DNA of 64,000 nt, taken from positions 9,559 to 73,558 of the forward strand of contig JAFGQU010000017.1 in the NCBI GenBank assembly GCA_016935525.1. The letters run 5' to 3'. Shown here in pieces: positions 2,097 to 60,708 of this stretch (positions are counted from its first letter, which is position 1; the number at the start of each line of letters is the position of its first letter). The DNA comes from Candidatus Omnitrophota bacterium. Its GTDB lineage: Bacteria > Omnitrophota > Gorgyraeia > Duberdicusellales > 4484-171. The position numbers and the translations under genes were made by a program. The notes under the pieces were generated by a model that worked only from the letters and a program-made list of their open reading frames with translations, searched no databases and was not told the DNA's origin.

Positions 2097-2942
2097 TTAT
2101 TCTACTCCTAAGACTTTACGGGCTTCGTTATGAGAATACGGCTCCCGCCCCATCACCCGGGCGATCCCGATAATACGTTCAATGAGTTCCTTATTGGTCG
2201 CAAGACGGGTCCGTTCATTGTCAAAATAGATATTATCTTCTAATCCGACCCGCACGCCGCCTCCGGCGATAATGCTCATCGCGTTCATCTTAAGCTGGAA
2301 ATCGCCGATACCCCCTACCGACCAGACCGATTCTTCCGGTAATTCTTTGACCATCAATCCCAGGCTTAACAGGTTCGCCTGCGCGCAAGCGATATTACCC
2401 AATATAAGGTTGAAATAGTAAGGCGCCCCGATCAGTCCTTTTTGGATAAGATAGTGGGCATAATTGATCATCCCTAAATCAAAAGCTTCAAGTTCCGGAC
2501 GGATACCGTTTTCTTTCATCTTTTTCGCCAACGCTTGGATCATCTGAGGGCTGCTGATACTTGCCTGTTTATTAAAATTGAGCGAACTTAACGTCAAACT
2601 CCCGAAATCCGGCTTCAATTCGCCGGTTAACTCAAGACATTCGGACCGTTTTTCAAATTCGGAATAGGCGCGGCCGCTGGTAGAAACGCAAAGAACGATA
2701 TCTTTATTTTTCTTGCGGATACCCCCGATAATCTCGCCGTAGATCTCTTTTTTATAGGTAGGTTCTCCGGTATGAGGATCTCGGGCATGAAGATGGACCA
2801 TATTGACGCCCAGGTCAAGGACTTCTAATACCTGTTCGACTATCTCCGAAGGCCGGACCGGAACTTTTTCGGTCATCGTTTTTGTGGGGATCATCCCGGT
2901 GGGAGTGAAATTTAAAATAAATTTACTATCCATAGTTATCAT
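2097..2942 (-). CDS. beta-keto acid cleavage enzyme family (BKACE/DUF849, 3-keto-5-aminohexanoate cleavage enzyme-like)
   Basis: 281 aa. N-terminal FTPTGMIPTK ... VHLHARD ... GEP pattern typical of BKACE TIM-barrels, recalled from memory. Confidence 0.55.
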   Translation of the reverse strand: MITMDSKFILNFTPTGMIPTKTMTEKVPVRPSEIVEQVLEVLDLGVNMVHLHARDPHTGEPTYKKEIYGEIIGGIRKKNKDIVLCVSTSGRAYSEFEKRSECLELTGELKPDFGSLTLSSLNFNKQASISSPQMIQALAKKMKENGIRPELEAFDLGMINYAHYLIQKGLIGAPYYFNLILGNIACAQANLLSLGLMVKELPEESVWSVGGIGDFQLKMNAMSIIAGGGVRVGLEDNIYFDNERTRLATNKELIERIIGIARVMGREPYSHNEARKVLGVE

Positions 2943-2950
2943 TTTTTATA

Positions 2951-2983
2951 GGCCACAAGGTCACATAGTCACACGTCACATGT
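2951..2983. repeat. family A (GTCACAnn octamer array) half-element
   Basis: gccacaaggtcacatagtcacacgtcacatgtc. Confidence 0.7.
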
Positions 2984-2992
2984 CTAATACAA

Positions 2993-3100
2993 ATGTTCAA
3001 TGCAAATTTAGCATTTAGCAATTATCAATTTAAATCCTGTATTCCCGTTCCTATTTTTCCATTGTTAACTGCTAATTGTTAATTGAACATTGCTAATTTC
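2993..3100. repeat. family F (TTAGCAAT-type) inverted-array hairpin
   Basis: Arms 2993-3037 and 3059-3100 are mutually inverted. Arm 2996-3029 is the reverse complement of 45006-45039 with 1 mismatch. Confidence 0.65.
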
Positions 3101-3107
3101 TTATCTC

Positions 3108-3141
3108 TCTCTAACCGCTAGCCGCTGAACGCTATCCGCTA
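3108..3141. repeat. family E (TAGCGGnTAGCG-type) half-element overlapping the last codons of the response-regulator gene
   Basis: ctctaaccgctagccgctgaacgctatccgctattc. Confidence 0.6.
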
Positions 3142-4512
3142 TTCGGCCACTTCTATTCCGTACTTTTTCATCAGATCATAAAAGGTCGGGCGGGTAATAC
3201 CCAGCATTTTTGCGGCAAGGGTCATGTTATTTCCGCTGTCGGATAACGCTTTCTTGATCAGATTGATCTCTAACTCCTGCCGGGCATCTTTTAAGTTAAG
3301 TTTCTCTTTCGCGTCATCGAGTTCATTTTCTTTCCCGAACCCCAGCTCCTGCGGGGTAATCAGGGAGTTTTCCGCCAAGATCACCGCGCGCCTGACTCTA
3401 TTTTCCATCTCACGGATGTTTCCCGGCCAGACGTAACTTTTGATAAAATCTTTCGCTTCTTTAGAAAACCCTTTTATGTCTTTATTGACCGCTTCCTGAC
3501 GGTAATGCTGGAGGAAATGTTTTGCCAGGAGATAGGCATCATCACCTCGTTCCCGCAGGGGCGGCAGTTCGATATTGATCACGCTTAACCGGTAATACAG
3601 GTCTTCCCGAAAACTGCCGTCTTTGATCTTTTTCTTCAGATCGCAATTAGTCGCGACGATCACCCGCACGTCAAGTTCAAGCGGAATATTTCCGCCGACC
3701 CGTTCGATCGTCCGCTCCTGCAGGAACCTTAATATCTTTACCTGCAGGTTAAGGCTCATCTCGCCTATTTCATCCAGAAATACCGTACCGCCGTGGGCGG
3801 CTTCCAATTTTCCGATACGTTTTACGTGCGCGTCGGTAAAAGAACCTTTCTCATGGCCGAACAATTCGCTTTCCAACAGGTTCTCCGGTATCGCGCCGCA
3901 ATTGATGACCATAAACGGGTTCTCGTTACGCGGACTCAATTGATGAAGCGCCTGAGCTACCAATTCTTTACCGGTCCCGCTTTCCCCGGTGATCAATACC
4001 GTCGCGTCGGAAGGCGCGACCCGGCGGATAAGTTTAAAGATATCCTGCATTTTGGGCGAATCACCGATCATACTCTCGAACCCGCCGGCAGTATGGATCT
4101 CTTCATTCAGCCGTTTATTTTCTATTTCGAGTTCCTGCATATGCAGGGCCCGGCGAAAAATGATCTTCAGTTCGTCGATATTTACCGGTTTCAAATAATA
4201 ATCGTCCGCGCCCCTGGTGATTGCCTCCAGAGCCAGTTCTTTTGAATCGTTACCGGTGATCATGACCACTTTCAGAAAAGGGTTGTCGGTTTTAAGCGCT
4301 TCCAGGATATCCATCCCTTCTTTGTTACGGAAATTAGCGCCGTCAAGGTTGATATCTAACGCGAGCAGGTTCGGACGGATCTCTCGCGCGATCGCGAGCG
4401 CTTGCTCTTTGGACGTCGCGGTTTCTACTTCATACTCATCTTGAAGCGCCCATTTAAGCTGTTTCAGTATTCCCTCGTCGTCGTCTACGATCAGGATCTT
4501 CGCTCTTTCCAT
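3139..4512 (-). CDS. sigma-54-dependent response regulator (NtrC family; candidate PEP-CTERM-box regulator PrsR)
   Basis: N-terminal REC domain (ILIVDDDEG...D). AAA+ sigma-54 activator motifs GESGTGKEL and ESELFGHEKGSFTDA. C-terminal Fis-type HTH. Confidence 0.9.
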   Translation of the reverse strand: MERAKILIVDDDEGILKQLKWALQDEYEVETATSKEQALAIAREIRPNLLALDINLDGANFRNKEGMDILEALKTDNPFLKVVMITGNDSKELALEAITRGADDYYLKPVNIDELKIIFRRALHMQELEIENKRLNEEIHTAGGFESMIGDSPKMQDIFKLIRRVAPSDATVLITGESGTGKELVAQALHQLSPRNENPFMVINCGAIPENLLESELFGHEKGSFTDAHVKRIGKLEAAHGGTVFLDEIGEMSLNLQVKILRFLQERTIERVGGNIPLELDVRVIVATNCDLKKKIKDGSFREDLYYRLSVINIELPPLRERGDDAYLLAKHFLQHYRQEAVNKDIKGFSKEAKDFIKSYVWPGNIREMENRVRRAVILAENSLITPQELGFGKENELDDAKEKLNLKDARQELEINLIKKALSDSGNNMTLAAKMLGITRPTFYDLMKKYGIEVAE

Positions 4513-4559: not shown

Positions 4560-4910
4560 TCATAAAACATGATAGAACTTCCACAGTAAAGACCCAACTT
4601 GTTTCCTTGCTTTTTCTATATTAGTATATTCTTCATCTCTTAAATAATTCATTTCTTTAGAAAATTCCAGCAGATATTCTGTTTCGAATAAGGATCCTAA
4701 GGCAACATTGGCAAATTGGTTCAGTTCCCTTTTACCCTGTCTACCTGTCCCTTCGACAATATTTGTCGGGATAGACAAAGCCGCTCGGCGCAACTGAGAC
4801 GTAATACCGTATATTTCTTCTTTAGGAAACTGTTTAGTAATCATATAAACTTGTTTTGCCAATTCATTTGCCTTTTGCCAAACTAATAATTTCTTATATC
4901 CTTTCTCCAT
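4560..4910 (-). CDS. four-helix-bundle protein (23S rRNA intervening-sequence protein family, PF05635/TIGR02436; Avd-like), copy 1
   Basis: 116 aa and basic. Family hallmarks W-x-KA...FPK-EE-Y-L-SQLRRAA-SI--NI-EG. About 78% identical to copy 6. Confidence 0.85.
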   Translation of the reverse strand: MEKGYKKLLVWQKANELAKQVYMITKQFPKEEIYGITSQLRRAALSIPTNIVEGTGRQGKRELNQFANVALGSLFETEYLLEFSKEMNYLRDEEYTNIEKARKQVGSLLWKFYHVL

Positions 4911-4963
4911 CGCCCTCTCCTTTCTTTTTCCTGGGCGACATTCGGTTAAAACCTTCCCATCTC

Positions 4964-5013
4964 TGCGTGTGACTAGCCTGCCATAAGGCAGGCGTGTGTC
5001 ATGTGTCGTGTGA
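4964..5013. repeat. family A arm (right arm of cassette 1) with internal GC hairpin
   Basis: gcgtgtgactagCCTGCCataaGGCAGGcgtgtgtcatgtgtcgtgtgac. Confidence 0.75.
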
Positions 5014-6990
5014 CTTTGATGCGGGCATTTCTATCGTAAACGCAGTCCCTTCTCCGGGAACACTTTCTGCCCGCATCGTACCCCCGTGAGCTTCAATGAT
5101 CGTTTTACACTGATAAAGGCCGACGCCTAATCCTTTCTCTTTGGTCGATTGAAACGGCCGGAATAAATGGTTATCGATAAATTCTTTGCTCATACCGCAT
5201 CCGGTATCCTGTATCTTCAGCGATACGGTATTATCGCCGGTTTCGGCCTTTATAGTAAGCGTACCTTTAGTATCCATCGCTTCTATCGCGTTGAGGATCA
5301 GATTGGCTAATACCTTATTGATATAATGGGGATCGGCATCGATAATACCGCCGGGCGCGCATTCTTTGACGACTTCGATGCTCTTAAACCGGTTTTGCCC
5401 GAGCTCCGCGAGCGCCTCATCCACCAGACCGGATACAGCGCAGGGCCGCTTCTGGAGCTGCAGGTCGCCCCGTAAGGCGCGGAACTCTTCGATCAGTCTT
5501 TTCATCTTTTCGATAGTATGTTCAAGCGTGAATAACGCGTCTTTCTGGAATTCGGGATTATCGAATTTATCTTTATTCGCCGATAACATCGAGAGGTTGT
5601 TCACGTAATTTTTCACGTCATGGATGATGAATGAAGAAAGCTTATACAGCGATTCCTTTTTTTCCGCTTCCCGGATCTTCTGATAGGCGAGACAGTTCAC
5701 GATCACACTGGACGCCTGTAACGATAACAATTTAAGAAGTTCCGAATCAAAAAACACTTTCTTTTCAAAATCCAATCCGATGATCCCGATGACTTTTTTA
5801 TCTCCGTATAACGGGGAAACTATCTCCATGTGTTGCGCGTGAAAAAAAGCCGCCGCGCGGGGATATTTATCGCCTAACCCGTTATATAACGTATCGGACA
5901 GGTTAAACGGCGCGGCTTTACGGAGCATCCAATCATAAAATTCCGCTTCAAACGGTATCTGCGCGCCGAAGATGATCACTTTGACCAGACGGGCGTCCAT
6001 TATGTTTTTTACCGCGCGCTCCAGCTTCTCTTCGATCTGGGGCAGTTCGGTGACCAGCGATATCTGGTAGGTGAAATCTTCCCACAATTTCTGCCAATCA
6101 TAGGTCTGCCGGGTAACACTGCGTAAAAAGAAATATTTTATCCGGTCTTTTACGGCCGAAGAGAACACCAGCACGAAAAACACGATGACCAGGAATAATC
6201 CGGTGAGGACCGAGAACAGCACGTTCAGGTTCCAGCCGAACACCTGGAATATCTTGATAAACGCGCCGATAAAAAACAGGTACCCGCCGATCATCGATAA
6301 TGTCAACGAAGTATTCACGGCGGTGTCTTCTTTGACCATCTCGGCCGCGATCCCTCTCCGCGAAAGCGCCAGATAACATGCCGCGCCGATAAAGATACTT
6401 ACCGAAGAATAGAAAAAAATGTCCGCGTTTATGGTTTTAAACAAAAACGCGTAGGTCGCTAAAAACAGGTACGGTACCAATATGAACAACGTCCCCAGGA
6501 ACAATACGCGCACGTATTTTCTACGGCTAAGGGTCATGCTTCGTTCAAGATTGGAAAGGGTAAACGCGAGATTGATGATGAACAGAATAGAAAAATACTG
6601 GGCAAGATGAGAAAGAATAACCACAGAATCATGTTTCTCAAAATAAACGGCAGGATGGATCCATAAAATAAGGAAAAAGATAAGCCCGGCAACACCCAGT
6701 ATCGGCGCAAGGATCATACGGTACATAAATTTCTTTTTCACCGGCAATATCCCTATACTGAAAATAAACCATACAATCGGGAGAATAAACAAGCCGATAC
6801 CGAACAATACGCTCTGGTGAGCCCCTTCCAGGAAAGAAAGCTTGGAACACTCGATGACGGCTACGCTCAAAAGAGCAAACCCCGCAAGGAGATTCGCGAT
6901 ATGCCGACGACGCAGAAAATTATACGCCGCGACGATCAACAATACGACATTGATCCCGGGTACATAGGTAAAAATAAGATTATTGATCAT
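4999..6990 (-). CDS. sensor histidine kinase with large multi-TM N-terminal domain (candidate PrsK-type)
   Basis: At least 8 predicted TM helices in the first 280 aa. HisKA H-box HDVKNYVNN. HATPase_c G-boxes DTGCGM and GLGVGL. Confidence 0.85.
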   Translation of the reverse strand: MINNLIFTYVPGINVVLLIVAAYNFLRRRHIANLLAGFALLSVAVIECSKLSFLEGAHQSVLFGIGLFILPIVWFIFSIGILPVKKKFMYRMILAPILGVAGLIFFLILWIHPAVYFEKHDSVVILSHLAQYFSILFIINLAFTLSNLERSMTLSRRKYVRVLFLGTLFILVPYLFLATYAFLFKTINADIFFYSSVSIFIGAACYLALSRRGIAAEMVKEDTAVNTSLTLSMIGGYLFFIGAFIKIFQVFGWNLNVLFSVLTGLFLVIVFFVLVFSSAVKDRIKYFFLRSVTRQTYDWQKLWEDFTYQISLVTELPQIEEKLERAVKNIMDARLVKVIIFGAQIPFEAEFYDWMLRKAAPFNLSDTLYNGLGDKYPRAAAFFHAQHMEIVSPLYGDKKVIGIIGLDFEKKVFFDSELLKLLSLQASSVIVNCLAYQKIREAEKKESLYKLSSFIIHDVKNYVNNLSMLSANKDKFDNPEFQKDALFTLEHTIEKMKRLIEEFRALRGDLQLQKRPCAVSGLVDEALAELGQNRFKSIEVVKECAPGGIIDADPHYINKVLANLILNAIEAMDTKGTLTIKAETGDNTVSLKIQDTGCGMSKEFIDNHLFRPFQSTKEKGLGVGLYQCKTIIEAHGGTMRAESVPGEGTAFTIEMPASKSHDT

Positions 6991-16482: not shown

Positions 16483-17649
16483 TTAATTACGCAGTGTTTG
16501 ATACACTATCGTTATTTTTTGAGAATTTTCATCCCAGAGTAACCGGTTATCATTAATATATCTTTTACCCGCAAGAGCGATCAATTCAGCAAACAGCTTA
16601 TCCTGAGAAAACCGGATAATACATTCTTTTATTCGAAGAGTATCTTTCGGATCAATCAGGAGGCCGTTTTCCTCATCAGTTATGATCTCCGGGATCCCTC
16701 CGACCCGCGATGCAATTACCGGCAGGCCGCAGGCCATTGCCTCATACAGCACATTAGGCATACCTTCATTAAGGCTCGGTAAAAGAAGCATATCGGCGGT
16801 GTTCATCCAGAGAGGGATCTCCTCAGGATTTATCCGTCCGGTCAATTTGAAACAATCCTCCAGGTTTTCCTTTTTTATCCTTTCGGTGATACCCCGTTTT
16901 AAATCCCCGTCTCCGACCATCACAAAGAGATATTTTCGGCGTTCTTCTTCGGGAATCAATAGTGCCGCATCGATCAGGCTTTGGGGATTTTTTATCGCGA
17001 CCAGGTTTCCCACGTACAAGACAATCGTTTTGTCTTCAGGTAAATCCAGCTGTTTTCTCATTTTTTGCTTATCCATAGGGAAAAATATTCCGGCATCCAC
17101 GCCTTTAGGCATCACCTGAACCTTATTTTTGCCCCCTAACGCCGTTATTTTTTCTGCCAACTCTTTACTTACCGTGATTATTGCATGCGCGTGTTTGATC
17201 GCGTATCTGATCAAACGGCGCACTATGAAACTACGGGATAATACATTAATATCTGAGCCGCGGGCGGAAATGACTACCGGTTTTTTAACCATTCTGCCTA
17301 AAAGCACCGCGGCAAATCCTTCCGGGTATACCCGATGGGCGTGGATGACATCAAAGTCGAAACTGGTTTTTATTTTCCGTATTACTTTTTTCGTAAAAAG
17401 GTAAAACCAAAACCCTTTTACCGGATTAAACAACGGTCCCGGCAAAGGGAGATATTTCGGATAAAAAATCTCTATTGCACCATCCTTGCGACTCGCCATG
17501 CCATTTCCCGGCCACCCCGGACGCGGCGATATGACACGGATATCGCAATAGCCGGACAATGATTCTACCTCCCGCTGGATAAAAATACCGAAAGAGGGAT
17601 TTGCCGTATCGGGATACATAAGCGATAGTATTAATACTTTATTTTTCAC
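16483..17649 (-). CDS. family 4 glycosyltransferase
   Basis: C-terminal EGMPNVLYEAMACGLPVIASRVGGIPEII (E-x7-E GT4 motif). Confidence 0.85.
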   Translation of the reverse strand: MKNKVLILSLMYPDTANPSFGIFIQREVESLSGYCDIRVISPRPGWPGNGMASRKDGAIEIFYPKYLPLPGPLFNPVKGFWFYLFTKKVIRKIKTSFDFDVIHAHRVYPEGFAAVLLGRMVKKPVVISARGSDINVLSRSFIVRRLIRYAIKHAHAIITVSKELAEKITALGGKNKVQVMPKGVDAGIFFPMDKQKMRKQLDLPEDKTIVLYVGNLVAIKNPQSLIDAALLIPEEERRKYLFVMVGDGDLKRGITERIKKENLEDCFKLTGRINPEEIPLWMNTADMLLLPSLNEGMPNVLYEAMACGLPVIASRVGGIPEIITDEENGLLIDPKDTLRIKECIIRFSQDKLFAELIALAGKRYINDNRLLWDENSQKITIVYQTLRN

Positions 17650-19190
17650 GCGTTACTTTCTATCGGTTTCCCGTTCTTTTTCGGCGACACCGGCCGGCGC
17701 GTTTTCTCCTGCCACAGATGGACGGCAAACTTTTTCATCTCCATTATGATGCCGGTTTTTTTATTGATATAAATGATAAGCGGGATATTCAGCGCGAAAA
17801 ACAATAAAGACCGGATTAAAAAAGTAATAATGTCACCGGGTATTCCCTGATATATTCCAATCGAAACCATACTTACCGAAAAAAGGCATCCGATCATATA
17901 CACAAACGGAACGTAATTCTGAATATAAAATCTTATCCGGGACCGGAACCCCACTTTATAATGATGCAGGAAATTATTGCTTAAAAGAGTGGAAAAGACA
18001 AATGAACTTGCCATCGTACAGAAAGCGACTCCCAACAACCCCTTATTCAGCCTTACGGCGATATAAATAAGCACCGCGTTAAGGATGATTACCGCGGCGC
18101 GAAACGGATAGATATGATGGATCTTTTTCGTGACGATCAAAAAGTTGGGAATACCGGCCTGCAGGATACCAAAAAAGAAAGAGACGACCGCGATCTGGGT
18201 AATAAACGTCACCGGAGTATATTGCGGTAAAAAGTATTTGATCAAAAACGGGATGACCAGCGCGATCGACCCGAGAAAAAGCGGCGACAAATAAGCCGAA
18301 ACGATCATCGGTTTAAGGACGTAATTTTTGATACTTTTGATATCATTGTTGTGTTTCCCCAATTGTTCGGCCAGATTAGGAAATATCGTCATAAAGATCG
18401 ACATGTACAGGACCCCCATGAACTGTTTGATCATCGTTGCCAACCCGTAGTACCCCAAAGCGGTAGTATCAAAGAACTTAATGATCATGAATTTATCCAC
18501 GCTGGCCATAAGGTTATTGGAAACCCCGTTACCTAAGATCGGCACCCCTATTTTAATAAGACGTATAGATTCTTTGATATTCACTACAAAGCGCGGTTTG
18601 AACTTACCCGCGCGCATCGTATATTGATTCACTATCGCAAACGATAAAAACATCGCGACAAGAACCCCCGGAAGTTTGAAAAAATATCCAAAGACACAAA
18701 CCCCGACTAAATTGGCCATAGTATAGATGACTTTCACTCGGCTGCGCAGAGAGAATTGTTTCTGAGCAAGAAGATAATGTTCCAGATAATACTGAAAATG
18801 CTGTTCGATCGCGATGAGAGCGACAAAGGTCACGCCCAGCATCGATATGCTGGCCGTCTTTCGCAGGAAAAAGGCGATGATGACGATCAGAAGGCTCCCG
18901 ATACACGCCAGGGCCATATTCGTGCTAAACGTGACATTCTTGATCTCTTCGATCTTATCGAGTTCTCCCTTGCCTTTGTGAAACGGGATCTCCCTCAGCA
19001 TCGCCCAGAGTATTCCTAACCCCGCGTGCATGGAATACATCAAAATAAGACGATATATCTGTAAGACACCATACAGAGCCGGGCCAAGGATACGGGCGGT
19101 AATAACCGCCTGAAGTATAGAAAAAACGGTAGCGATCATCATGCTTCCCGTATACACCGAACTGTCTTTCATTAAGTTTTGATATTTCAT
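17646..19190 (-). CDS. Wzx-type polysaccharide flippase (MOP superfamily)
   Basis: 514 aa with 12-14 TM helices. The N-terminal basic motif and layout are typical of PST/Wzx proteins. Confidence 0.75.
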   Translation of the reverse strand: MKYQNLMKDSSVYTGSMMIATVFSILQAVITARILGPALYGVLQIYRLILMYSMHAGLGILWAMLREIPFHKGKGELDKIEEIKNVTFSTNMALACIGSLLIVIIAFFLRKTASISMLGVTFVALIAIEQHFQYYLEHYLLAQKQFSLRSRVKVIYTMANLVGVCVFGYFFKLPGVLVAMFLSFAIVNQYTMRAGKFKPRFVVNIKESIRLIKIGVPILGNGVSNNLMASVDKFMIIKFFDTTALGYYGLATMIKQFMGVLYMSIFMTIFPNLAEQLGKHNNDIKSIKNYVLKPMIVSAYLSPLFLGSIALVIPFLIKYFLPQYTPVTFITQIAVVSFFFGILQAGIPNFLIVTKKIHHIYPFRAAVIILNAVLIYIAVRLNKGLLGVAFCTMASSFVFSTLLSNNFLHHYKVGFRSRIRFYIQNYVPFVYMIGCLFSVSMVSIGIYQGIPGDIITFLIRSLLFFALNIPLIIYINKKTGIIMEMKKFAVHLWQEKTRRPVSPKKNGKPIESNA

Positions 19191-19207
19191 AAAATTAAGG
19201 TCACAAG

Positions 19208-19468
19208 GTCACATAGACACATAGTCACAAGTTGAAGGTCACACGTTGCACGACACATAGTCACACGACTCCTCTCAGGATTTCTACAATACGAGATGCT
19301 GCTTTGCCATCCCACACACAAGTCACAACGTCACATAGACACATAGTCACAAGTTGAAGGTCACACGTTGCACGACACATAGTCACACGACTCCTCTCAG
19401 GATTTCTACAATACGGGACGCGGCTTTGCCGTCCCACACACAAGTCACAACGTCACATAGACACATAG
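19208..19468. repeat. tandem 122-bp direct repeat (2.1 units), each unit a family-A arm plus a degenerate copy of the last ~17 codons of wecB
   Basis: Unit starts at 19208, 19330 and 19452. ORF 19261..19443 encodes ...WDGKAASRIVEILRGVV, which mimics the wecB C-terminus WDGKAAQRIVEILKGDM. Confidence 0.8.
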
Positions 19469-20674
19469 TCACATGTCTCCTTTTAAAATCTCCACAATGC
19501 GCTGGGCCGCTTTCCCGTCCCATAAAGAAAGAGAAGGTAGCATTGCCGGGGGATTGTCAAGAATACGCATAGCATCGGTAATTATTTTCTCTTTATCACA
19601 ACCGACGATGATATTAGTGCCGGCATCGACCGTGATCGGCCGTTCGGTGTTCTCGCGTAACGTAAGACAGGGCACGCCTAAAACCGTGGTCTCCTCCTGC
19701 ATCCCGCCGGAATCGGTGAGAACCAGACGCGCTTCACTCATGAGTTTCAAGAAATCCAAATAGCCCAGAGGGTCTATTTGGATTAATCCATAGTCCATAG
19801 TCCGTAGTCCGTGGTTTATTTCTCCTTCTTTTCTCCATTCACGTGTGACTATGTGACTTCCCCGTTCCATAATATTTTTATACAGCGGGGTCCCGCTTAG
19901 ATATGTACATATCGGTGCGGGATGTGACTTTGTGACCTTTGCCAGAGCTTTGCGGGTACGGGGGTGGACGGGAAAGATCACCTTAATATGCCGGGATATC
20001 TCCTCTATTGCCTCCATTATTCCCTCTAAAACTTCGGGGTCGTCGACGTTTGAGGGACGATGCAGGGTCAATACCGCGTATTCTTTGGGTTTTATCCTAA
20101 GATCCTCTACTATTTTGGAATTTGCAGCTTGCTGCTTGTGCCTTAACAAAGTATCAATCATGACATTCCCCACAAAATAGATCTTATCTTCATTTACTCC
20201 TTCCCGAAGCAGATTTTCTTTGGCATCGGGTTCGGTCGTAAAAAGGTAATCCGAAATTGCGTCGGTCAATACCCGGTTGATCTCCTCCGGCATCGTCCGG
20301 TCGAAACTGCGCAGGCCCGCCTCGACATGAGCCACTTTTACGCCTAATTTAGAGGCGACCAGGGCGCAGGCAATAGTGGAATTCACATCACCAACGACTA
20401 CTACCAGGTCCGGTTTTTCTTTTATCAATACCGGTTCAAACCGTTTCATGATTTCGGCGGTCTGGGCCGCGTGAGATAAAGAACCGACCTCTAAATTGAT
20501 ATCCGGTTTAGGTATCCCTAATTCATCAAAAAACAGTTTTGACATCTTCTCGTCATAATGCTGGCCGGTATGGACAAGTACCGCTTCTATCTCGGGATGT
20601 TTTTTGTATTCATCCATGAGCGGCGCTATTTTCATGAAATTTGGTCTTGCCCCCGCCACATTAATAATCCTCAT
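19469..20674 (-). CDS. wecB: UDP-N-acetylglucosamine 2-epimerase (non-hydrolysing) carrying a ~43-aa in-frame insertion derived from a repeat element
   Basis: HTGQHYD ... LVVVGDVNST ... TDSGGMQEE epimerase_2 motifs. The insertion is encoded by 19790-19935. Confidence 0.9.
   Translation of the reverse strand: MRIINVAGARPNFMKIAPLMDEYKKHPEIEAVLVHTGQHYDEKMSKLFFDELGIPKPDINLEVGSLSHAAQTAEIMKRFEPVLIKEKPDLVVVVGDVNSTIACALVASKLGVKVAHVEAGLRSFDRTMPEEINRVLTDAISDYLFTTEPDAKENLLREGVNEDKIYFVGNVMIDTLLRHKQQAANSKIVEDLRIKPKEYAVLTLHRPSNVDDPEVLEGIMEAIEEISRHIKVIFPVHPRTRKALAKVTKSHPAPICTYLSGTPLYKNIMERGSHIVTREWRKEGEINHGLRTMDYGLIQIDPLGYLDFLKLMSEARLVLTDSGGMQEETTVLGVPCLTLRENTERPITVDAGTNIIVGCDKEKIITDAMRILDNPPAMLPSLSLWDGKAAQRIVEILKGDM
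19790..19935. repeat. composite family C + family A + AGCGGGACCCCGCT/TATAAAAAT sub-element inserted in-frame in wecB
   Basis: Reverse complement of 19830-19935 aligns at about 85% to 57555-57660. ccatagtccatagtccgtagtccgtgg at 19793-19820 is family C. Confidence 0.75.
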
Positions 20675-20689
20675 TATGTCCTCCTCAGT

Positions 20690-20765
20690 AATATTACAAA
20701 ATTACAAATTACAATAAACAAACTACAAACAAAAAGAAGAATAAACAAATCACAAACAGAAATAA
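20690..20765. repeat. family B (ATTACAA/ACAAACAA units) arm, left of cassette 2
   Basis: attacaaaattacaaattacaataaacaaactacaaacaaaaag... Confidence 0.55.
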
Positions 20766-20767
20766 TA

Positions 20768-21121
20768 CTATTTTGATTTATCAATAATAGCCGTAAAAAT
20801 ATTCCTAATCTCCTTGGATTCTTTTATATTAACGTTAATCTTATCCATAAACTCTTCACCGACTTCTTTTAAAAGTTCTAACCAGTATGAGCTTTCTTTA
20901 CATTCCTTTCTCGCGATCCGCATCCTATGGATAAAATCTTTTTTACTTAACTTTTCATTTGCTTCCCGGTAATTTGCTCCGACAGAACCGGATGATCGTA
21001 TCAGTTGGCTGATAATCTTTGAACTGATTACACTCTTAGGCAACATCTTGCATAACTTGATTACATCTTTAGCAAATTCAAGGGTTCTTTTCTCTAAATC
21101 GTATGGTTTATTTGCATCCAT
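20768..21121 (-). CDS. four-helix-bundle protein (PF05635/TIGR02436), copy 2
   Basis: 117 aa with the family pattern (FAKDV..LCKMLPK ... SQLIRSSGSVGANYREA). Divergent from the other copies. Confidence 0.8.
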   Translation of the reverse strand: MDANKPYDLEKRTLEFAKDVIKLCKMLPKSVISSKIISQLIRSSGSVGANYREANEKLSKKDFIHRMRIARKECKESSYWLELLKEVGEEFMDKINVNIKESKEIRNIFTAIIDKSK

Positions 21122-21165
21122 GTTTATCTCATTTGTAATTTGTATATTGTCTATTGTTTATTTCG
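21122..21165. repeat. family B arm, right of cassette 2 (inverted: ttgtaatttgtatattgtctattgtttatt)
   Basis: Reverse complement gives aataaacaatagacaatatacaaattacaaatg. Confidence 0.55.
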
Positions 21166-22371
21166 CATTACCTCATTATATATATCAAGGTATTTCGGCA
21201 CTATTTTAGGCCATTGGCGGTTGGCAACCACTTCTTCCCTGGCGGAAACACCTAATCGGCGGCGTAATTCTTCATTTTCGGACAAAGCGAGAACCTTATC
21301 CGCAAGGTCACTTGTATCGCCCGCTTTAAAATAGACTCCCGTCTTGCCATCCGTGACCAGTTCCTTTAATCCGCCGACATCGCTCACGATAACTGCCTTT
21401 TCCATCGCCATGGCTTCCAGCGGTTTTAACGGCGTTACCAGTTCGGTAATCCGTTTACTGATACGAGGGTATACCAGGATATCCATTACCGAATAACAAT
21501 CCATTATCTGTTCATGCGGAACTTTACCGGTAAACATCACGCAGTTTTCAAACACACCGAGCTCTTTGGCTAAAGCGCGCAGGTATTGATCTTCCACCCC
21601 ACCGCCGACGATAAGGAACTTGATATCACGATCCTTTTTAGTGATCCTCGAGGCGGCTTCGATCAAGATTTTAATCCCTTCGAACGTGAAGAACGAACCG
21701 ATAAAACCTACCACAAGTTTACCGGCAAGGTCGTATTCCTGAATTACTTTATCGGCTTTAGGCCGGGGTTTAAATTTTTGAGTGTCCACACCGTTTTCAA
21801 CGATATATACCGAATCCCGTTTCACTCTTACCGATACTTCATTTGTGATCCCTTCACAGATCCCGATTAAGGCATCGGCACCCCGCAGAAGTTTTGCTTC
21901 CATATACCGGCTGACCTTATACTTGAACGACCCCTCACTGAACCGGCCGAGATCCACCGCGGCATCTTCCCAGAACGCGCGCATCTCATACACAAATGGG
22001 ATCCCTGCTTTTCTCGCGGCACTCATCGCCGGCAAGCCGTTTAAAGAAGGCGAATGGGCGTGGATAATATCTATCTTTAACGGATCGATAAGCCTTAATA
22101 TTTTTTTCTCAAAGAGATTCATCACTGCTTTTTCCCGAATAAATGGCACCTGAAAAACTCCCGAAACATCCGCGGTAAAACGGTAATACGCGACTCCCTG
22201 GTTTTCTTCATAAGGAAAAGGCCGGAGATATTTGGGAGAGGTGATCACCGTAGGAATAATCCCTACCTCTTTCTGGAAATCGACAATAGATTTACTGCGG
22301 ATACTGTACCCGCTCAAATCAGGAACAGAGCGGTCAAGTACGTGAAGGACTCTCATAGTCTCAATTTTCAT
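21151..22371 (-). CDS. family 4 glycosyltransferase
   Basis: EAMAMEKAVIVSDVGGLKELV GT4 C-terminal motif. Confidence 0.85.
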   Translation of the reverse strand: MKIETMRVLHVLDRSVPDLSGYSIRSKSIVDFQKEVGIIPTVITSPKYLRPFPYEENQGVAYYRFTADVSGVFQVPFIREKAVMNLFEKKILRLIDPLKIDIIHAHSPSLNGLPAMSAARKAGIPFVYEMRAFWEDAAVDLGRFSEGSFKYKVSRYMEAKLLRGADALIGICEGITNEVSVRVKRDSVYIVENGVDTQKFKPRPKADKVIQEYDLAGKLVVGFIGSFFTFEGIKILIEAASRITKKDRDIKFLIVGGGVEDQYLRALAKELGVFENCVMFTGKVPHEQIMDCYSVMDILVYPRISKRITELVTPLKPLEAMAMEKAVIVSDVGGLKELVTDGKTGVYFKAGDTSDLADKVLALSENEELRRRLGVSAREEVVANRQWPKIVPKYLDIYNEVMRNKQ

Positions 22372-40158: not shown

Positions 40159-40572
40159 TTAATAGCGGTTAGCGGATAGCGGTGAGCGATTAGAATCAGA
40201 TTCTTGCTCATCACTAAACTTCCCTATTCTCTTAACATACGTCATCAATAATTTTATAACCTCAGACAATAGACTTATTGCCTGATCATACTCTTTCTGA
40301 TTGCACAAGCTGATATCTTTGCTTAAAGACAATTGAGTTTCCAGCTCAGCACAAGACCCCAACGCGATTTTGAGAAACTGAATATATTCTTTTGAACCAC
40401 GCATATACCCTTCAGCGATATTTGAAGGGATAGATATAGCTGAACGTCTTATTTGTGATGTCATCGTATACATTTCGTCTTTAGGGAATTTTTGAGTCAT
40501 TTTATAGATCATAATGACTAAATCGTAAGATTTTTGATATGCCCCTAATTCTTTATAACTTTTTATTTTCAT
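40159..40572 (-). CDS. four-helix-bundle protein (PF05635/TIGR02436), copy 5, with repeat-encoded C-terminal tail
   Basis: 137 aa. LGAYQKSYDL ... FPKDEMYTMTSQIRRSAISIPSNIAEG. Confidence 0.8.
   Translation of the reverse strand: MKIKSYKELGAYQKSYDLVIMIYKMTQKFPKDEMYTMTSQIRRSAISIPSNIAEGYMRGSKEYIQFLKIALGSCAELETQLSLSKDISLCNQKEYDQAISLLSEVIKLLMTYVKRIGKFSDEQESDSNRSPLSANRY
40160..40215. repeat. family E arm, left of cassette 5
   Basis: aatagcggttagcggatagcggtgagcgattagaatc. Confidence 0.7.
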
Positions 40573-47115: not shown

Positions 47116-47832
47116 TTATGGATTCTGGTAGGTGAACAATGCTTTCTTAATATTTATTTTACCTTCATAAAACGCTTTTCCGATGATCACTCCGTATACA
47201 AACGGCGCTTCTTTCCGGACCAGCGCGAGGTCTTCCATGCTTCCGATCCCGCCGGAAAGGATATATTCCGGACCGGTAATAGTTTTAAGTTTTTTTACTT
47301 CCTCGATACTGGGGCCGGCCAGTGTCCCGTCTTTGGCAATATCGGTATAGATCACCGTGTTCACTCCTTTTCCGGCAAGGTAGCGGACAAATTCCAGAAA
47401 CGAAACCGTTGAGGCCTCCTGCCATCCTTTGGTGCGGAATATCCCGTCAAGCACATCGACACTGACGGCGACTTTTTCTTTGAATCCGGCTAACAGAGAG
47501 TCCAGGAACGCTTCATCGGTCGCTTGAGTGCCAATAATGACCCGTTTGACTCCCAGATCGATAAGCCGTTCGGCTTTTTCAAACGTACGGATCCCTCCTC
47601 CGGTCTCAAGAGGAATACCGGCGTTGGCAATCGTATGGATTACTTTTTCGTTCTCACCGTCACCGAAAGAAGCGTTGAGATCAACGATATGGATGAGGGA
47701 GGCTCCTTCGTCACGCAATTTCTCGGCCATTCCCAGAGGATCGTCACTGTAGACGATGCATGATTCCTTTTTGCCCTGGTAGAGACGGACGACTTTACCG
47801 TTATAGAGATCTATTGCGGGTATGATCAGCAT
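47116..47832 (-). CDS. hisA: ProFAR isomerase
   Basis: MLIIPAIDLYNGKVVRL ... VDLNASFG ... GGIGSMEDL. 238 aa. Confidence 0.85.
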   Translation of the reverse strand: MLIIPAIDLYNGKVVRLYQGKKESCIVYSDDPLGMAEKLRDEGASLIHIVDLNASFGDGENEKVIHTIANAGIPLETGGGIRTFEKAERLIDLGVKRVIIGTQATDEAFLDSLLAGFKEKVAVSVDVLDGIFRTKGWQEASTVSFLEFVRYLAGKGVNTVIYTDIAKDGTLAGPSIEEVKKLKTITGPEYILSGGIGSMEDLALVRKEAPFVYGVIIGKAFYEGKINIKKALFTYQNP

Positions 47833-47844
47833 ACCGATTGAAAG

Positions 47845-47940
47845 TCACATAGACACATAGTCACATGGTCACACGTTAAAACCCAGAAAACATTATTTCT
47901 TTCCCCCGCGTGTGACGTGTGTCGTGTGACGTGTGACATG
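47845..47940. repeat. family A solo hairpin between hisB and hisA
   Basis: agtcacatagacacatagtcacatggtcacacgt, loop 33 nt, gtgtgacgtgtgtcgtgtgacgtgtgacatgt. Confidence 0.8.
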
Positions 47941-47943
47941 TAA

Positions 47944-48602: not shown

Positions 48603-48688
48603 TCGCAAGTCACATAGTCACAAGGTCACATAGTCACACGTAGGAAAGGGAATCTTACGTGTGTCGTGTGACGTGTGTCGTGTGACTC
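48603..48688. repeat. family A solo hairpin between hisD and hisB
   Basis: agtcacatagtcacaaggtcacatagtcacacgt, loop 15 nt, acgtgtgtcgtgtgacgtgtgtcgtgtgactc. Confidence 0.8.
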
Positions 48689-57554: not shown

Positions 57555-57700
57555 GACACATCCCGCACCGAGATTTTTCTTATCCAGCGGGACCCCGCTG
57601 TATAAAAATATTATGGAACGGGGAGGTCACATAGGCACACGTATTCGGTTTCACGTGTGACGTGTGACGTGTGTCGTGTGACATGTGACGTGTTTTACTC
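57555..57700. repeat. composite family A element containing the AGCGGGACCCCGCT palindrome + TATAAAAATATTATGG sub-element
   Basis: 57560-57660 is about 85% identical to the reverse complement of the wecB insert. Right arm acgtgtgacgtgtgacgtgtgtcgtgtgacatgtgacgtgt. Confidence 0.8.
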
Positions 57701-58324: not shown

Positions 58325-58362
58325 TATAAGTCACAAGGTCACAAAGACACAAGGTCACATGT
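58325..58362. repeat. family A arm (left arm of cassette 6)
   Basis: aagtcacaaggtcacaaagacacaaggtcacatgtc. Confidence 0.75.
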
Positions 58363-58712
58363 CAAAGAGAATGATAAAATTTCCACAATAAAGCCCCGAC
58401 ATGTCTACGTAACATCTCTATTTCACTATATTTATCAGCATTCAAATATCCCATTTCACGGCAAAAATCCAATAGATATTCAGTCTCAAACAATGAGCCT
58501 AAAGCAATATTAACAAATTGCTTCAATTCTCTTTTACCCTGCCGGCCCGTCCCCTCGACAATATTTGTCGGAATAGATAAAACCGCTCGGCGCAATTGAG
58601 AAGTGATTGCATAAATTTCTTCTTTGGGAAATTGTCTAGTAAGAGCATACACCGTCTTAGCCAGTTCATTAGCTTTCTGCCAGGCTAATAATTTTTTATA
58701 CCCTTTCTCCAT
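58362..58712 (-). CDS. four-helix-bundle protein (PF05635/TIGR02436), copy 6
   Basis: 116 aa. About 78% identical to copy 1. Confidence 0.85.
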   Translation of the reverse strand: MEKGYKKLLAWQKANELAKTVYALTRQFPKEEIYAITSQLRRAVLSIPTNIVEGTGRQGKRELKQFVNIALGSLFETEYLLDFCREMGYLNADKYSEIEMLRRHVGALLWKFYHSL

Positions 58713-58747
58713 CGCCCAACTCCTTTCTTCTCCTGGGCGATCTCTGT

Positions 58748-58792
58748 ATTTTTCACATGTGACTTTGTGACTATGTGACGTGTGACCTTGAT
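58748..58792. repeat. family A arm (right arm of cassette 6)
   Basis: cacatgtgactttgtgactatgtgacgtgtgacctt. The reverse complement ends ...gtcacatgtg, like the left arm. Confidence 0.75.
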
Positions 58793-60588
58793 TACATTTT
58801 CAATACTTCCCAGAACGCTTCCTGAGGCACCGTTACCATACCGATCTGTTTCATCCTCTTTTTCCCTTTTTTCTGTTTTTCCCACAGTTTGCGTTTTCGG
58901 CTGATATCTCCGCCGTAACATTTCGCGGTTACGTTTTTCTTTAAAGCCGATACTTTTTCGGCAGCGATGATCCTTGCGCCAATACCGGCCTGAATACTCA
59001 CCTCATACATCTGACGGGGAATAAGTTCTTTCAACTTTTCTACTACCCCCCTGGCTTTCGTATACGCTTTCTCTTTATGGACTATCAGCGAGAACGCCTC
59101 AACCGGCTTCTTATTCAAAAATAAATCTATCTTCACGATTTCGGTTTTACGGTATCCGATAAATTCATACTCAAAGGAAGCATATCCTTTACTGGCCGAT
59201 TTAATCTTATCGTAAAAATCTACTATAATCTCAGCCAGGGGGAGTTCAAACACAAGGTTAATCCGGTCTTTCCCCAGATAATCGCTTTTAATAAATTCGC
59301 CGCGACGGGATTTTGCCAATTCACAAATAGCATCCATCGCGTCGATCGGAGTAAGTACCGTCGCCTGGATGTAGGGTTCAAACACTTCCGCGATCTCGGT
59401 CTCTCCCGGTAAATGATGCGGGCTGTCGACGTTGACAGTTTCTCCGTCGGTTTTTTTCACCTGGTACATTACGCTGGGAGAAGTAACGATCAAATCCAAA
59501 GAGAATTCCCGTTCCAACCGCTCCTGGACGATCTCCATATGTAAAAGGCCCAGAAATCCACAACGGAACCCATAGCCTAAAGCCCCGAGGCTATCCGGTT
59601 CAAAGACGAACGAAGAATCTGAAAGATGCAGTTTCTCAATCGCTTCCCGTAATTGCGGATAATCTTTAGGCGCCGTCGGGAAAATACCGCTGAATACCAT
59701 CGGCGACATCTTTTTATACCCTTCAAACGGTTTTTCGGTAGGGTTATCTTTTAACGTAATAGTATCGCCGACATCCACTTCCTGAGGATTTTTGATGTTA
59801 CAGCAAATATAGCCGACATCTCCGGCGCGTAATTCATTCTGTTTAAGCTGTTCGGGGACAAAAAAACCTACTTCTTCTACCCGATAGGTCGCGTTTTTAT
59901 GCATCATCAGAATAGTGTCGCCTACCGCGAGTTTACCGTCAAATACCCTGACAAACACTATCGCGCCTTTATACAGATCAAATACCGAATCAAAAAGGAT
60001 CGCTTTTAACGGTTTGGTTTCATCAGCCGCCGGTGGCGAGATCTCCTTGATGATCCGTTCCATCACCGCTCTTACTCCGGTGCCTTCTTTTGCCGAAACA
60101 TAGGTGACCTCTTCTTCTTTAAATCCGAAGATATCATGCAGTTCCTCAGCGGTCCGTTTACGGTTCGCACTGGGGAGATCGATCTTGTTCCCTACCGGGA
60201 TGATACGCAAATCGTTTTCCAGAGCAAGATAAAAGTTACCCATAGTCTGAGCTTCAATCCCCTGTGACACATCGACCAGCAATAGCGCTCCTTCACAGGC
60301 TTTCAATGATTTTGCTACCTCATAGGTAAAATCGACATGTCCCGGAGTATCGATAAGGTTGAGGATATATTCGTTCCCGTCATCGGCTTTGTAGGTAAAC
60401 CTTACGGCTTTAGCTTTGATAGTGATGCCCCGCTCTTTCTCCAATTCCATGCTATCAAGCATCTGATCGGTAAATTTACGCTTATCGATCGCTCCCACAA
60501 GCTCTAACATCCGGTCGGCAAGCGTAGACTTCCCATGATCAATATGGGCGATTATACAGAAGTTTCTTATGTCCGGACGATTACTCAT
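58792..60588 (-). CDS. lepA: elongation factor 4
   Basis: NFCIIAHIDHGKSTLADR G-domain. 598 aa. Confidence 0.95.
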   Translation of the reverse strand: MSNRPDIRNFCIIAHIDHGKSTLADRMLELVGAIDKRKFTDQMLDSMELEKERGITIKAKAVRFTYKADDGNEYILNLIDTPGHVDFTYEVAKSLKACEGALLLVDVSQGIEAQTMGNFYLALENDLRIIPVGNKIDLPSANRKRTAEELHDIFGFKEEEVTYVSAKEGTGVRAVMERIIKEISPPAADETKPLKAILFDSVFDLYKGAIVFVRVFDGKLAVGDTILMMHKNATYRVEEVGFFVPEQLKQNELRAGDVGYICCNIKNPQEVDVGDTITLKDNPTEKPFEGYKKMSPMVFSGIFPTAPKDYPQLREAIEKLHLSDSSFVFEPDSLGALGYGFRCGFLGLLHMEIVQERLEREFSLDLIVTSPSVMYQVKKTDGETVNVDSPHHLPGETEIAEVFEPYIQATVLTPIDAMDAICELAKSRRGEFIKSDYLGKDRINLVFELPLAEIIVDFYDKIKSASKGYASFEYEFIGYRKTEIVKIDLFLNKKPVEAFSLIVHKEKAYTKARGVVEKLKELIPRQMYEVSIQAGIGARIIAAEKVSALKKNVTAKCYGGDISRKRKLWEKQKKGKKRMKQIGMVTVPQEAFWEVLKM

Positions 60589-60611
60589 AACGCATTATAG
60601 TTGAAATAAAT

Positions 60612-60708
60612 AAGTCACAAAGTCACATAGACACATAGTCACACGTGAAAAAATATTAAATCTTAATACGTGTGTCGTGTGACATGTGACGTGTGACCTC
60701 CCTTTTAT
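60612..60708. repeat. family A solo hairpin between lepA and cmk
   Basis: agtcacaaagtcacatagacacatagtcacacgtg, loop 20 nt, acgtgtgtcgtgtgacatgtgacgtgtgacct. Confidence 0.8.

Follow-up and report, generated by a model that had tools for sequence, protein, structure and literature searches.

Why are the last 17 codons of wecB present three times at its junction with wzx, alternating with short repeat elements? The junction lies in a stretch of 64,000 nucleotides of Candidatus Omnitrophota DNA, here called the window. The original prediction placed two further 122-bp units behind the wecB stop, each an arm of the dispersed repeat family A fused to a copied wecB 3′ end. It suggested that they might be a trace of element spreading, through long target duplication or template switching, or else a product of slippage between family-A arms.

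The wecB-wzx locus

All of the approximately 50 genes in the window lie on the minus strand. wecB (19469..20674) codes for a UDP-N-acetylglucosamine 2-epimerase of 401 aa (Pfam PF02350 Epimerase_2, E=3.5e-114), and NCBI lists the identical protein (100%) for a MAG labelled 'Candidatus Omnitrophica bacterium'. The next gene is the Wzx-type flippase gene wzx (17646..19190; Pfam Polysacc_synt), and both are members of a large exopolysaccharide cluster. A Pfam scan of about 50 ORFs found no transposase, integrase or reverse transcriptase in the 64-kb window.

No Shine-Dalgarno sequence precedes wzx. Since the N-terminus MKYQNL... is kept in four genomes, the first ATG was taken as the wzx start, and in all four it lies within ATGA. 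Public calls of the gene differ: the product has 508 aa in NCBI entry P0121, which is identical to the window protein, and 497 aa in the homologue from the related genome L003. Counted from the first ATG, the one in the ATGA overlap, it has 514 aa.

wecB itself carries an in-frame repeat-element insertion of about 115-150 nt (19786..19939, minus strand), made up of GTCACA octamers and GGACTAY heptamers and sharing a segment with 57600-57640. The protein has 401 aa, against 361-373 aa in relatives, and a shorter remnant occupies the same loop in the related genome L001.

Anatomy of the array

Tandem Repeats Finder reported a repeat at 19200-19473 (period 122, 2.2 copies, 96% matches, score 513), and a second repeat search aligned 19200-19321 with 19322-19443 at 96%. 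The two predicted 122-bp units, 19208-19329 and 19330-19451, are real and correspond to this repeat read from a different starting point. The order in gene sense, across the 278-nt spacer, is: working end A, arm 1, copy B1, arm 2, copy B2, arm 3, 9 nt, and the wzx ATG. Each unit consists of a 72-nt arm of GTGAC/GTGTC octamers (gene sense) and a 54-nt copy of the wecB end, with 4 nt common to both, and the TGA stop of every unit falls within the first GTGAC of the arm. The units thus combine a family-A arm with the 3′ end of wecB, as predicted, but the copied stretch comes to about 51-54 nt and not to about 60.

All these features lie on the minus strand. The working end A (19469..19522) codes for WDGKAAQRIVEILKGDM followed by TGA, the stop lying inside the first GTGAC of arm 1. 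Arm 1 (19437..19472) is 36 nt long and has the octamer units GTGACTAT GTGTCTAT GTGACGTT GTGACTTG followed by TGTG. It corresponds to arms 2 and 3 less 35 nt between two GTGACTATGTGTC repeats, and it matches the end of arm 2 at 36/36 positions. The displaced copies B1 (19383..19436) and B2 (19261..19314) differ from each other by 4 nt and share one peptide, WDGKAASRIVEILRGVV, as compared with WDGKAAQRIVEILKGDM in wecB itself. Arm 2 (19315..19386, 72 nt) has units of the 8-mer type only, and arm 3 (19200..19264, 65 nt) lies directly upstream of the wzx start. The 36-nt arm segment that borders each unit occurs in three places with 100% identity.

The occurrence of a wecB-end copy downstream of wecB is not a matter of chance. 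In a search with the C-terminal peptides of 49 genes, a downstream copy was found for wecB only, with a score of 70 (BLOSUM62, 15 aa) against at most 27 when the stretches 3′ of the remaining 48 genes were searched in the same way. A tblastn search with every gene terminus in the window gave no other copied gene end.

A structured RNA element or a terminator was considered for the array and ruled out. The arms at this junction have no 7-mer partner, so arm 2 forms no hairpin and no structure is predicted for the array, the RNA fold of which is no better than that of shuffled sequences (z=+1.6). Rfam gave nothing above threshold for the array (best ROSE_3, E=0.079), and neither a promoter-like nor a terminator-like site was seen there on the gene strand.

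The count of three ends comes from a single MAG assembly. In the Logan assembly of this organism (SRR13394437), contigs end inside arms, and one of them, L086, starts within arm 3. Look-ups of the small ORFs and of wecB returned nothing bearing on the copy number of the array.

The copy-and-arm module predates the split from the sister genome

Four syntenic loci, L001, L002, L003 and L090, were compared with the window. In L001 (GCA_964483625.1), the wecB end is followed by a 37-nt GTGAC arm, one copy (WDGKAASRIVTILKGDM*), an arm and wzx. This one-copy state is repeated in the independent Logan contig L002. L003 (GCA_964506075.1) has neither arm nor copy in the 54 nt from the wecB stop to the conserved first methionine of Wzx; its gene caller sets the wzx start 51 nt further on, which makes the spacer 105 nt. 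In the outgroup L090 (GCA_040754255.1), a more distant member of the Omnitrophota, the wecB stop overlaps the wzx start (AAATGAAG).

The best non-self match of LepA in a collection of 5.8 billion proteins (83%) lies on L091, which is another contig of the MAG of L001 and is syntenic with 55.9-64 kb of the window. Four-fold degenerate sites of nine housekeeping genes are 44.5% identical between the window and L091 (n=696), and those of wecB are 47% identical between the window and L001. The low four-fold identity together with the synteny indicates that the two genomes are vertical sisters with nearly saturated neutral divergence. As both carry the order end, arm, copy, arm, this architecture is ancestral to both and predates their split.

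Among 83 wecB loci from GTDB genomes, L001 was the only further case of copied ends, and the viral contigs searched gave no further gene-end array. None of the top 120 wecB homologues has two WDG motifs, and WecB proteins with long C-terminal tails (P0068, P0037) occur in ordinary contexts.

The polysaccharide cluster around the junction (16483-22371 in the window, compared with L001 and L003) is mosaic. Wzx of the window is 82% identical in amino acids to that of L003 and 53% to that of L001, and the downstream GT4 protein is 71% and 57% identical, respectively. The upstream GT4 protein is closer to L001 (67%) than to L003 (58%), and WecB hardly separates the relatives (83% to L001, 81% to L003). 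The switch of the wzx and GT4 affinities between L001 and L003 places a recombination breakpoint at the wecB-wzx junction. The slot between the GT4 gene and wecB is occupied in the window by a 23S_rRNA_IVP gene (Pfam; Avd-like four-helix bundle) at 20768..21121 on the minus strand, and by a PDDEXK_3 gene (GxxExxY type) in L001 (2218-2625) and L003 (9687-9959). This looks like a cassette swap at a fixed site.

The displaced copies are conserved

B1 and the copy in L001 differ at 12 of 54 nt (42/54 identical, 78%) and show no indels. The working ends of the two genomes differ at 11 of 54 nt. The neutral rate predicts about 29-30 differences in 54 nt, and 12 or fewer would arise with P=4e-6. With 78% identity against 44.5% at neutral sites, the copies are not decaying junk.

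Conservation is pronounced in the first part of the copies, where 26 of nt 1-30 are conserved. All five variable sites of the displaced copies in nt 1-30 are third positions (P=0.004); over all 54 nt the figure is 7/13, which was judged non-significant by eye. B1 and B2 differ at 4 of 54 nt. All four differences fall within nt 6-21 and at third positions, and their clustering in 16 nt has roughly P 0.01 by our own estimate, the simulation having covered another span. Two of the four form a compensatory pair in a local hairpin of 6-9 bp at the start of the copies, the one such pair between B1 and B2. Similar hairpins are also present in working wecB ends and are not specific to the copies. Third positions pair with third positions in this hairpin, and the codon and structure readings of the conservation are therefore inseparable.

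Within the window, 15 of 54 nt separate the working end from B1. The arm segments next to them show 0/36 differences, a result with P=8e-6 had the arms diverged like the ends. Copies and arms thus differ in history or in constraint. The displaced copies are accordingly not recent duplicates of the present gene end. Counting substitutions, the proposed way to date the duplications, does not work either, since change in the copies is far slower than in neutral DNA and copies and arms differ in history or constraint.

Readthrough from wecB into the copies was rejected: the offset of the copy is 86 nt in the window and 87 nt in L001, and the frames differ.

An open relay of short ORFs crosses the spacer

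Every wecB-end copy ends in AGGAG followed by G-TGA-CT-ATG at the start of the arm, and the AGGAG lies 10 nt before the ATG. The 278-nt spacer consequently resolves into three short ORFs joined stop to start, all on the minus strand. The first (19383..19466, 27 aa) opens with an ATG 2 nt after the wecB TGA, contains B1 in the wecB frame and ends at the B1 TGA. The second (19261..19380, 39 aa) has its ATG 2 nt after that stop, contains B2 in frame and ends at the B2 TGA. The third (19187..19258, 23 aa) has its ATG 2 nt after the B2 TGA and 10 nt after AGGAG, and its own TGA overlaps the wzx ATG in ATGA. The register of the relay requires unit lengths of 2 mod 3, and those present, 86 and 122 nt, both agree with this.

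The junctions of the relatives were compared in the same way. In L090 there is no joint and no spacer ORF, and the stop of wecB itself lies in ATGA. In L003 a TAA-T-ATG joint leads to one ORF of 18 aa that ends in ATGA. In L001 a TGA-CC-TTG joint leads to one ORF of 44 aa, which runs from a TTG 2 nt past the wecB stop to ATGA and has an internal ATG 10 nt after AAAGGAG. The window has three ORFs, each with a TGA-CT-ATG joint, the last of which ends in ATGA. An open relay is thus present in three genomes. When the spacers of the window, L001 and L003 were shuffled, an unbroken relay was obtained in 6%, 10% and 9% of the trials, respectively. The spacers of the window and L001 are homologous, so the three cases are not independent, and the joint chance is about 0.005-0.01.

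These results support, though they do not prove, selection for translational coupling at the wecB-wzx junction. The relay needs open frames only and leaves the conservation of nt 1-30 (26/30) unaccounted for, and the copies are read in frame 0 in the window but in frame -1 in L001. The 60-aa ORF at 19261-19443 has no Pfam match and is not recorded as a called gene, in agreement with the earlier view that it is not a conventional gene. For annotators, ORFs of this kind are neither usual genes nor pure noise.

Family-A arms at other junctions

The three-unit octamer pattern of family A occurs 20 times in the window and not at all in shuffled sequences (the motif count is 16-20, depending on the search). 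A full element comprises an arm of 8-nt period (GWCACAnn, plus strand), a core and an inverted arm of 7-nt period (GTGTGWC). Short forms occupy the hisD-hisB-hisA and cmk-lepA junctions, and two long forms enclose 23S_rRNA_IVP (Avd-like) genes. Within the window, three 8-mer arms lacking a 7-mer partner are found at the wecB-wzx junction only.

Family-A elements also lie at orthologous junctions in L091, with arms almost unchanged and cores diverged. Such orthologous elements are located at 60614-60697 in the window and 2925-3000 in L091, and further ones at 47844-47941 and 48609-48686. By this comparison, the arms are old and constrained rather than recently inserted, and their conservation at shared junctions points to function or to strong homogenisation rather than to recent mobility.

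A search for host sequence co-duplicated with arms at other element loci had been suggested. None was found at the 10 other family-A loci or at the other 48 gene ends of the window, and the likeness between the flanks of the 10 loci was within the range of shuffled flanks. Because neither copied ends nor copied flanks occur elsewhere in the window, the array is not a general footprint of element spread.

Several further features of the arms were noted. GTGAC-TAT-GTGTC arms open a short ORF (MCLCD...) at 47828-47858 before hisA and at 60597-60636 before lepA. Its stop falls 4 nt past the ATG of hisA in the first case and 6 nt short of the ATG of lepA in the second. In arms with GTGAC in second place, ATG-TGA start-stop pairs are found instead. 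A second short-period repeat family, with the heptamer GTCCRTR / GGACTAY, is distinct from family A and occurs at 19786, 34193, 34221, 34636, 55439 and other positions.

Six 23S_rRNA_IVP (PF05635) genes are present in the window (4560-5030, 20768-21121, 34251-34613, 36519-36974, 40159-40572 and 58362-58799). They sit between housekeeping and polysaccharide genes, two of them within family-A arms. The one after lepA has an orthologous position in the sister genome (L091, 4831-5226).

A similar array in an unrelated lineage

Metagenomes were scanned without reference to the arms, for two TGGGAYGGNAARGCNGC motifs 72-102 nt apart. The scan matched contigs L084 and L085, which come from two samples of an unrelated organism of 60% GC and differ by 4 mismatches in 1479 nt, none of them within the array. 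Here three wecB ends recur every 89 nt, and the 41-nt arms between them are built on a different octamer (CCTCYGCA). At the distal wecB end the native ATGA overlap with the following gene is retained; the proximal ends enter tails encoded by the arms. The left border of the copies is the TGG of WDG in both Omnitrophota and L084, with a copy length of 39-51 nt; this shared border is partly imposed by the search, since the scan pattern demanded TGGGAYGG in both copies.

L084 shares the element architecture of the window with different octamers. It carries an intact IVP gene flanked by inverted (ATTTCGGA)n arms, a wecB remnant in which an octamer palindrome lies between some 12 N-terminal and some 60 C-terminal codons, and a next epimerase gene that is interrupted by repeats and an IVP remnant (remnant and cassette features at 620-870, 1240-1700 and 2880-3300).

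In L047 (WOR-3), a 45-aa C-terminal wecB remnant is fused to the next ORF with no arm. Plain scars of wecB C-termini without arms therefore also exist.

Origin of the array

The window has equal units joined head to tail with direct repeats at their borders. A single-unit state is seen in L001 and L002, and no unit in L003 and L090. These are the marks of a tandem duplication. We consider it about an even call that the array arose by a lineage-specific tandem duplication of an older copy-and-arm module, through recombination or slippage between arms, and was kept by the translational linkage of wecB and wzx. The junction would originally have been a stop/start overlap (ATGA). The module, in which a family-A octamer half-arm follows a copy of wecB's last 17 codons, has been at the junction since before the split from L001. 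The extra unit would be recent, the identical 36-nt arm segments having been the sites of unequal recombination or replication slippage. The array would then be a local rearrangement at a gene junction and not a by-product of element transposition. It would persist by keeping the two genes translationally linked, with the last spacer ORF stopping in the ATGA that overlaps the start of wzx, a gene that itself lacks a ribosome-binding site. Rearrangements would survive only if they left the relay intact, as unit lengths of 86 and 122 nt (both 2 mod 3) do. Slippage between family-A arms, the second of the two origins first proposed, is thus the best account of the step between B1 and B2, given the 36-nt border segments. 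Two points are left over. Simple duplication followed by drift does not predict the clustered differences between B1 and B2. Nor does it account for the first event, in which a second wecB end was placed behind an arm and its left border set exactly at the TGG of WDG. The first copy may stem from replacement by an incoming unit, from illegitimate duplication or from some other process.

A replacement of the 3′ end is the alternative that addresses this first event. Here, an incoming segment with its own wecB end and arm would have joined before the resident end by homing-like repair or homology-facilitated illegitimate recombination, which would make the proximal end the foreign one and leave the distal copies as native ends pushed downstream. 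The proximal segment does complete the gene with a second copy displaced downstream, a pattern that fits the hybrids made by mitochondrial mobile ORFs (PMC3630166). Proximal and distal ends differ by 26-30% between identical arms, the cluster is mosaic with a breakpoint at this very junction, and in L084 it is the distal copy that retains the native overlap, the proximal copies running into arm tails. Against this, no endonuclease or recombinase gene lies between the copies or in the window, and the distal copies are not nearer to the arm-free L003 (21 differences for B1, 16 for the working end). wecB looks vertically inherited (83% aa, like LepA at 83%), and with an old and shared architecture no recent invasion is visible. 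We regard such a replacement as unlikely. An insertion footprint, left by a long (about 50-nt) target-site duplication or a template switch, would account for copies that directly flank an arm, and for the similar copy length and border in Omnitrophota and L084 despite different octamers, although that border may partly stem from the search pattern. However, none of the 10 other family-A loci (0/10) has duplicated flanks, the copies are 70-74% identical, and 70-72% when taken as duplicated flanks, where the arms are 100% identical, and in both the window and L001 the copies are followed by the arm at the same relative position, which is a tandem of copy plus arm and not a target-site duplication. 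The footprint of element spread that had been proposed is thus very unlikely.

Two further explanations do without a duplication that is kept for use. The source is a MAG, arms repeated throughout the genome break the Logan assembly, and B1 and B2 differ by just 4 clustered substitutions; an assembler could have threaded strain variants of a single copy-and-arm unit into a tandem. Yet a loop in an assembly normally yields identical units, and the 122-nt period keeps the ORF relay in register. Moreover, the one-copy state (L001, L002) and the three-end state (L084, L085) were each recovered in two independent assemblies, and such arrays therefore do exist. An artefact is quite unlikely on this evidence. 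The copies might otherwise be a functionless scar left when a second wecB paralogue was lost or the cluster was reshuffled, for which the armless remnant in L047 and the mosaic cluster can be cited. Neutral decay would be expected of a scar, whereas the copies are 78% identical without indels where four-fold sites are 44.5% identical, and in both genomes arms border the remnant, which has its exact start at WDG. A scar seems highly improbable.

Comparison with known systems

In general bacterial genetics, short direct repeats give rise to tandem duplications through unequal crossing-over or slipped misalignment. The array resembles these in its head-to-tail units, its identical 36-nt border repeats and its one-unit relative. 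It differs in that its unit joins a gene end to a dispersed repeat arm, and in that the duplicated module is itself old and conserved.

In operons, translational coupling is associated with overlapping or adjacent stop and start codons (ATGA, TGAnnATG). The ATGA at wzx in four genomes, the joints with 2 nt between stop and start, and the lack of a Shine-Dalgarno sequence at wzx are of this kind. The difference here is a putative chain of up to three spacer ORFs built from gene-end copies and arms.

Small dispersed intergenic repeats include REP/BIME, MITEs such as Correia, the Rickettsia palindromic elements and cyanobacterial heptamer repeats. Like these, family A is present in many copies, intergenic and fixed in orientation, with inverted arms in its full elements, and the in-frame insertion inside wecB recalls the Rickettsia palindromic elements. 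Unlike them, family A has arms that consist of arrayed 8-nt and 7-nt units, some of its elements include a 23S_rRNA_IVP gene, and the family occupies orthologous junctions of two genomes saturated at synonymous sites, which makes it conserved and not transient.

A diversity-generating retroelement has a variable repeat at the 3′ end of a gene, a template repeat downstream and an Avd accessory protein. This possibility was examined and rejected for the array: no reverse transcriptase is encoded in the 64 kb, the mismatches are not specific to adenines of either copy (the distal copy has A at 2, C at 6, G at 4 and T at 3 of the 15 mismatches with the working end), and the copy has just 54 nt. 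Matches to bAvd were below the cut-off, the Avd-type genes near the array being the PF05635 gene at 20768-21121 and five more in the window. A 3′-end copy just downstream and the abundance of Avd-like (PF05635) genes nearby are the points of likeness (PMC10053308).

Gene hybrids with a C-terminal duplication are formed by mobile ORFs in fungal mitochondria, in atp6, atp9, cox2 and nad3 of Glomus and in atp6 of Allomyces (PMC3630166). In these, as in the array, the proximal C-terminal segment completes the gene and a divergent second copy lies downstream; the copies have 64-81% nucleotide identity and high protein identity (PMC3630166). The array differs in having only a 36-72-nt arm and no endonuclease ORF between the copies, and it is bacterial and ancient, with no foreign sign in its proximal end. 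Heptamer repeats in Nostoc are mentioned in a preprint (bioRxiv 10.1101/2022.06.06.494920). In the literature searched, no account was found of octamer-arm/IVP elements or of bacterial gene-end arrays. The array and its relay may be described as a variant on tandem duplication, translational coupling and small dispersed repeats.

Implications for operon junctions

The family-A arms (GTGAC TAT GTGTC ...) themselves contain TGA-CT-ATG. A wider reading of the locus is tentative and, in our judgement, rather doubtful. It holds that octamer arms and kept gene-end copies may form a conserved relay, which would carry ribosomes across inserted repeat DNA to a gene without a ribosome-binding site. Gene-end arrays would then be a selectable way for junctions to absorb repeats, and family-A arms might serve more widely as coupling or leader-ORF devices.

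If it were only a product of slippage, the array would be a small curiosity. What takes it beyond that is an untranslated-looking copy kept at about 78% identity against about 45% at synonymous sites, a like array in an unrelated lineage, and an unbroken chain of ORFs leading to a gene that has no ribosome-binding site. This suggests that dispersed repeats and duplicated gene ends may join operon junctions that are under selection for coupling.
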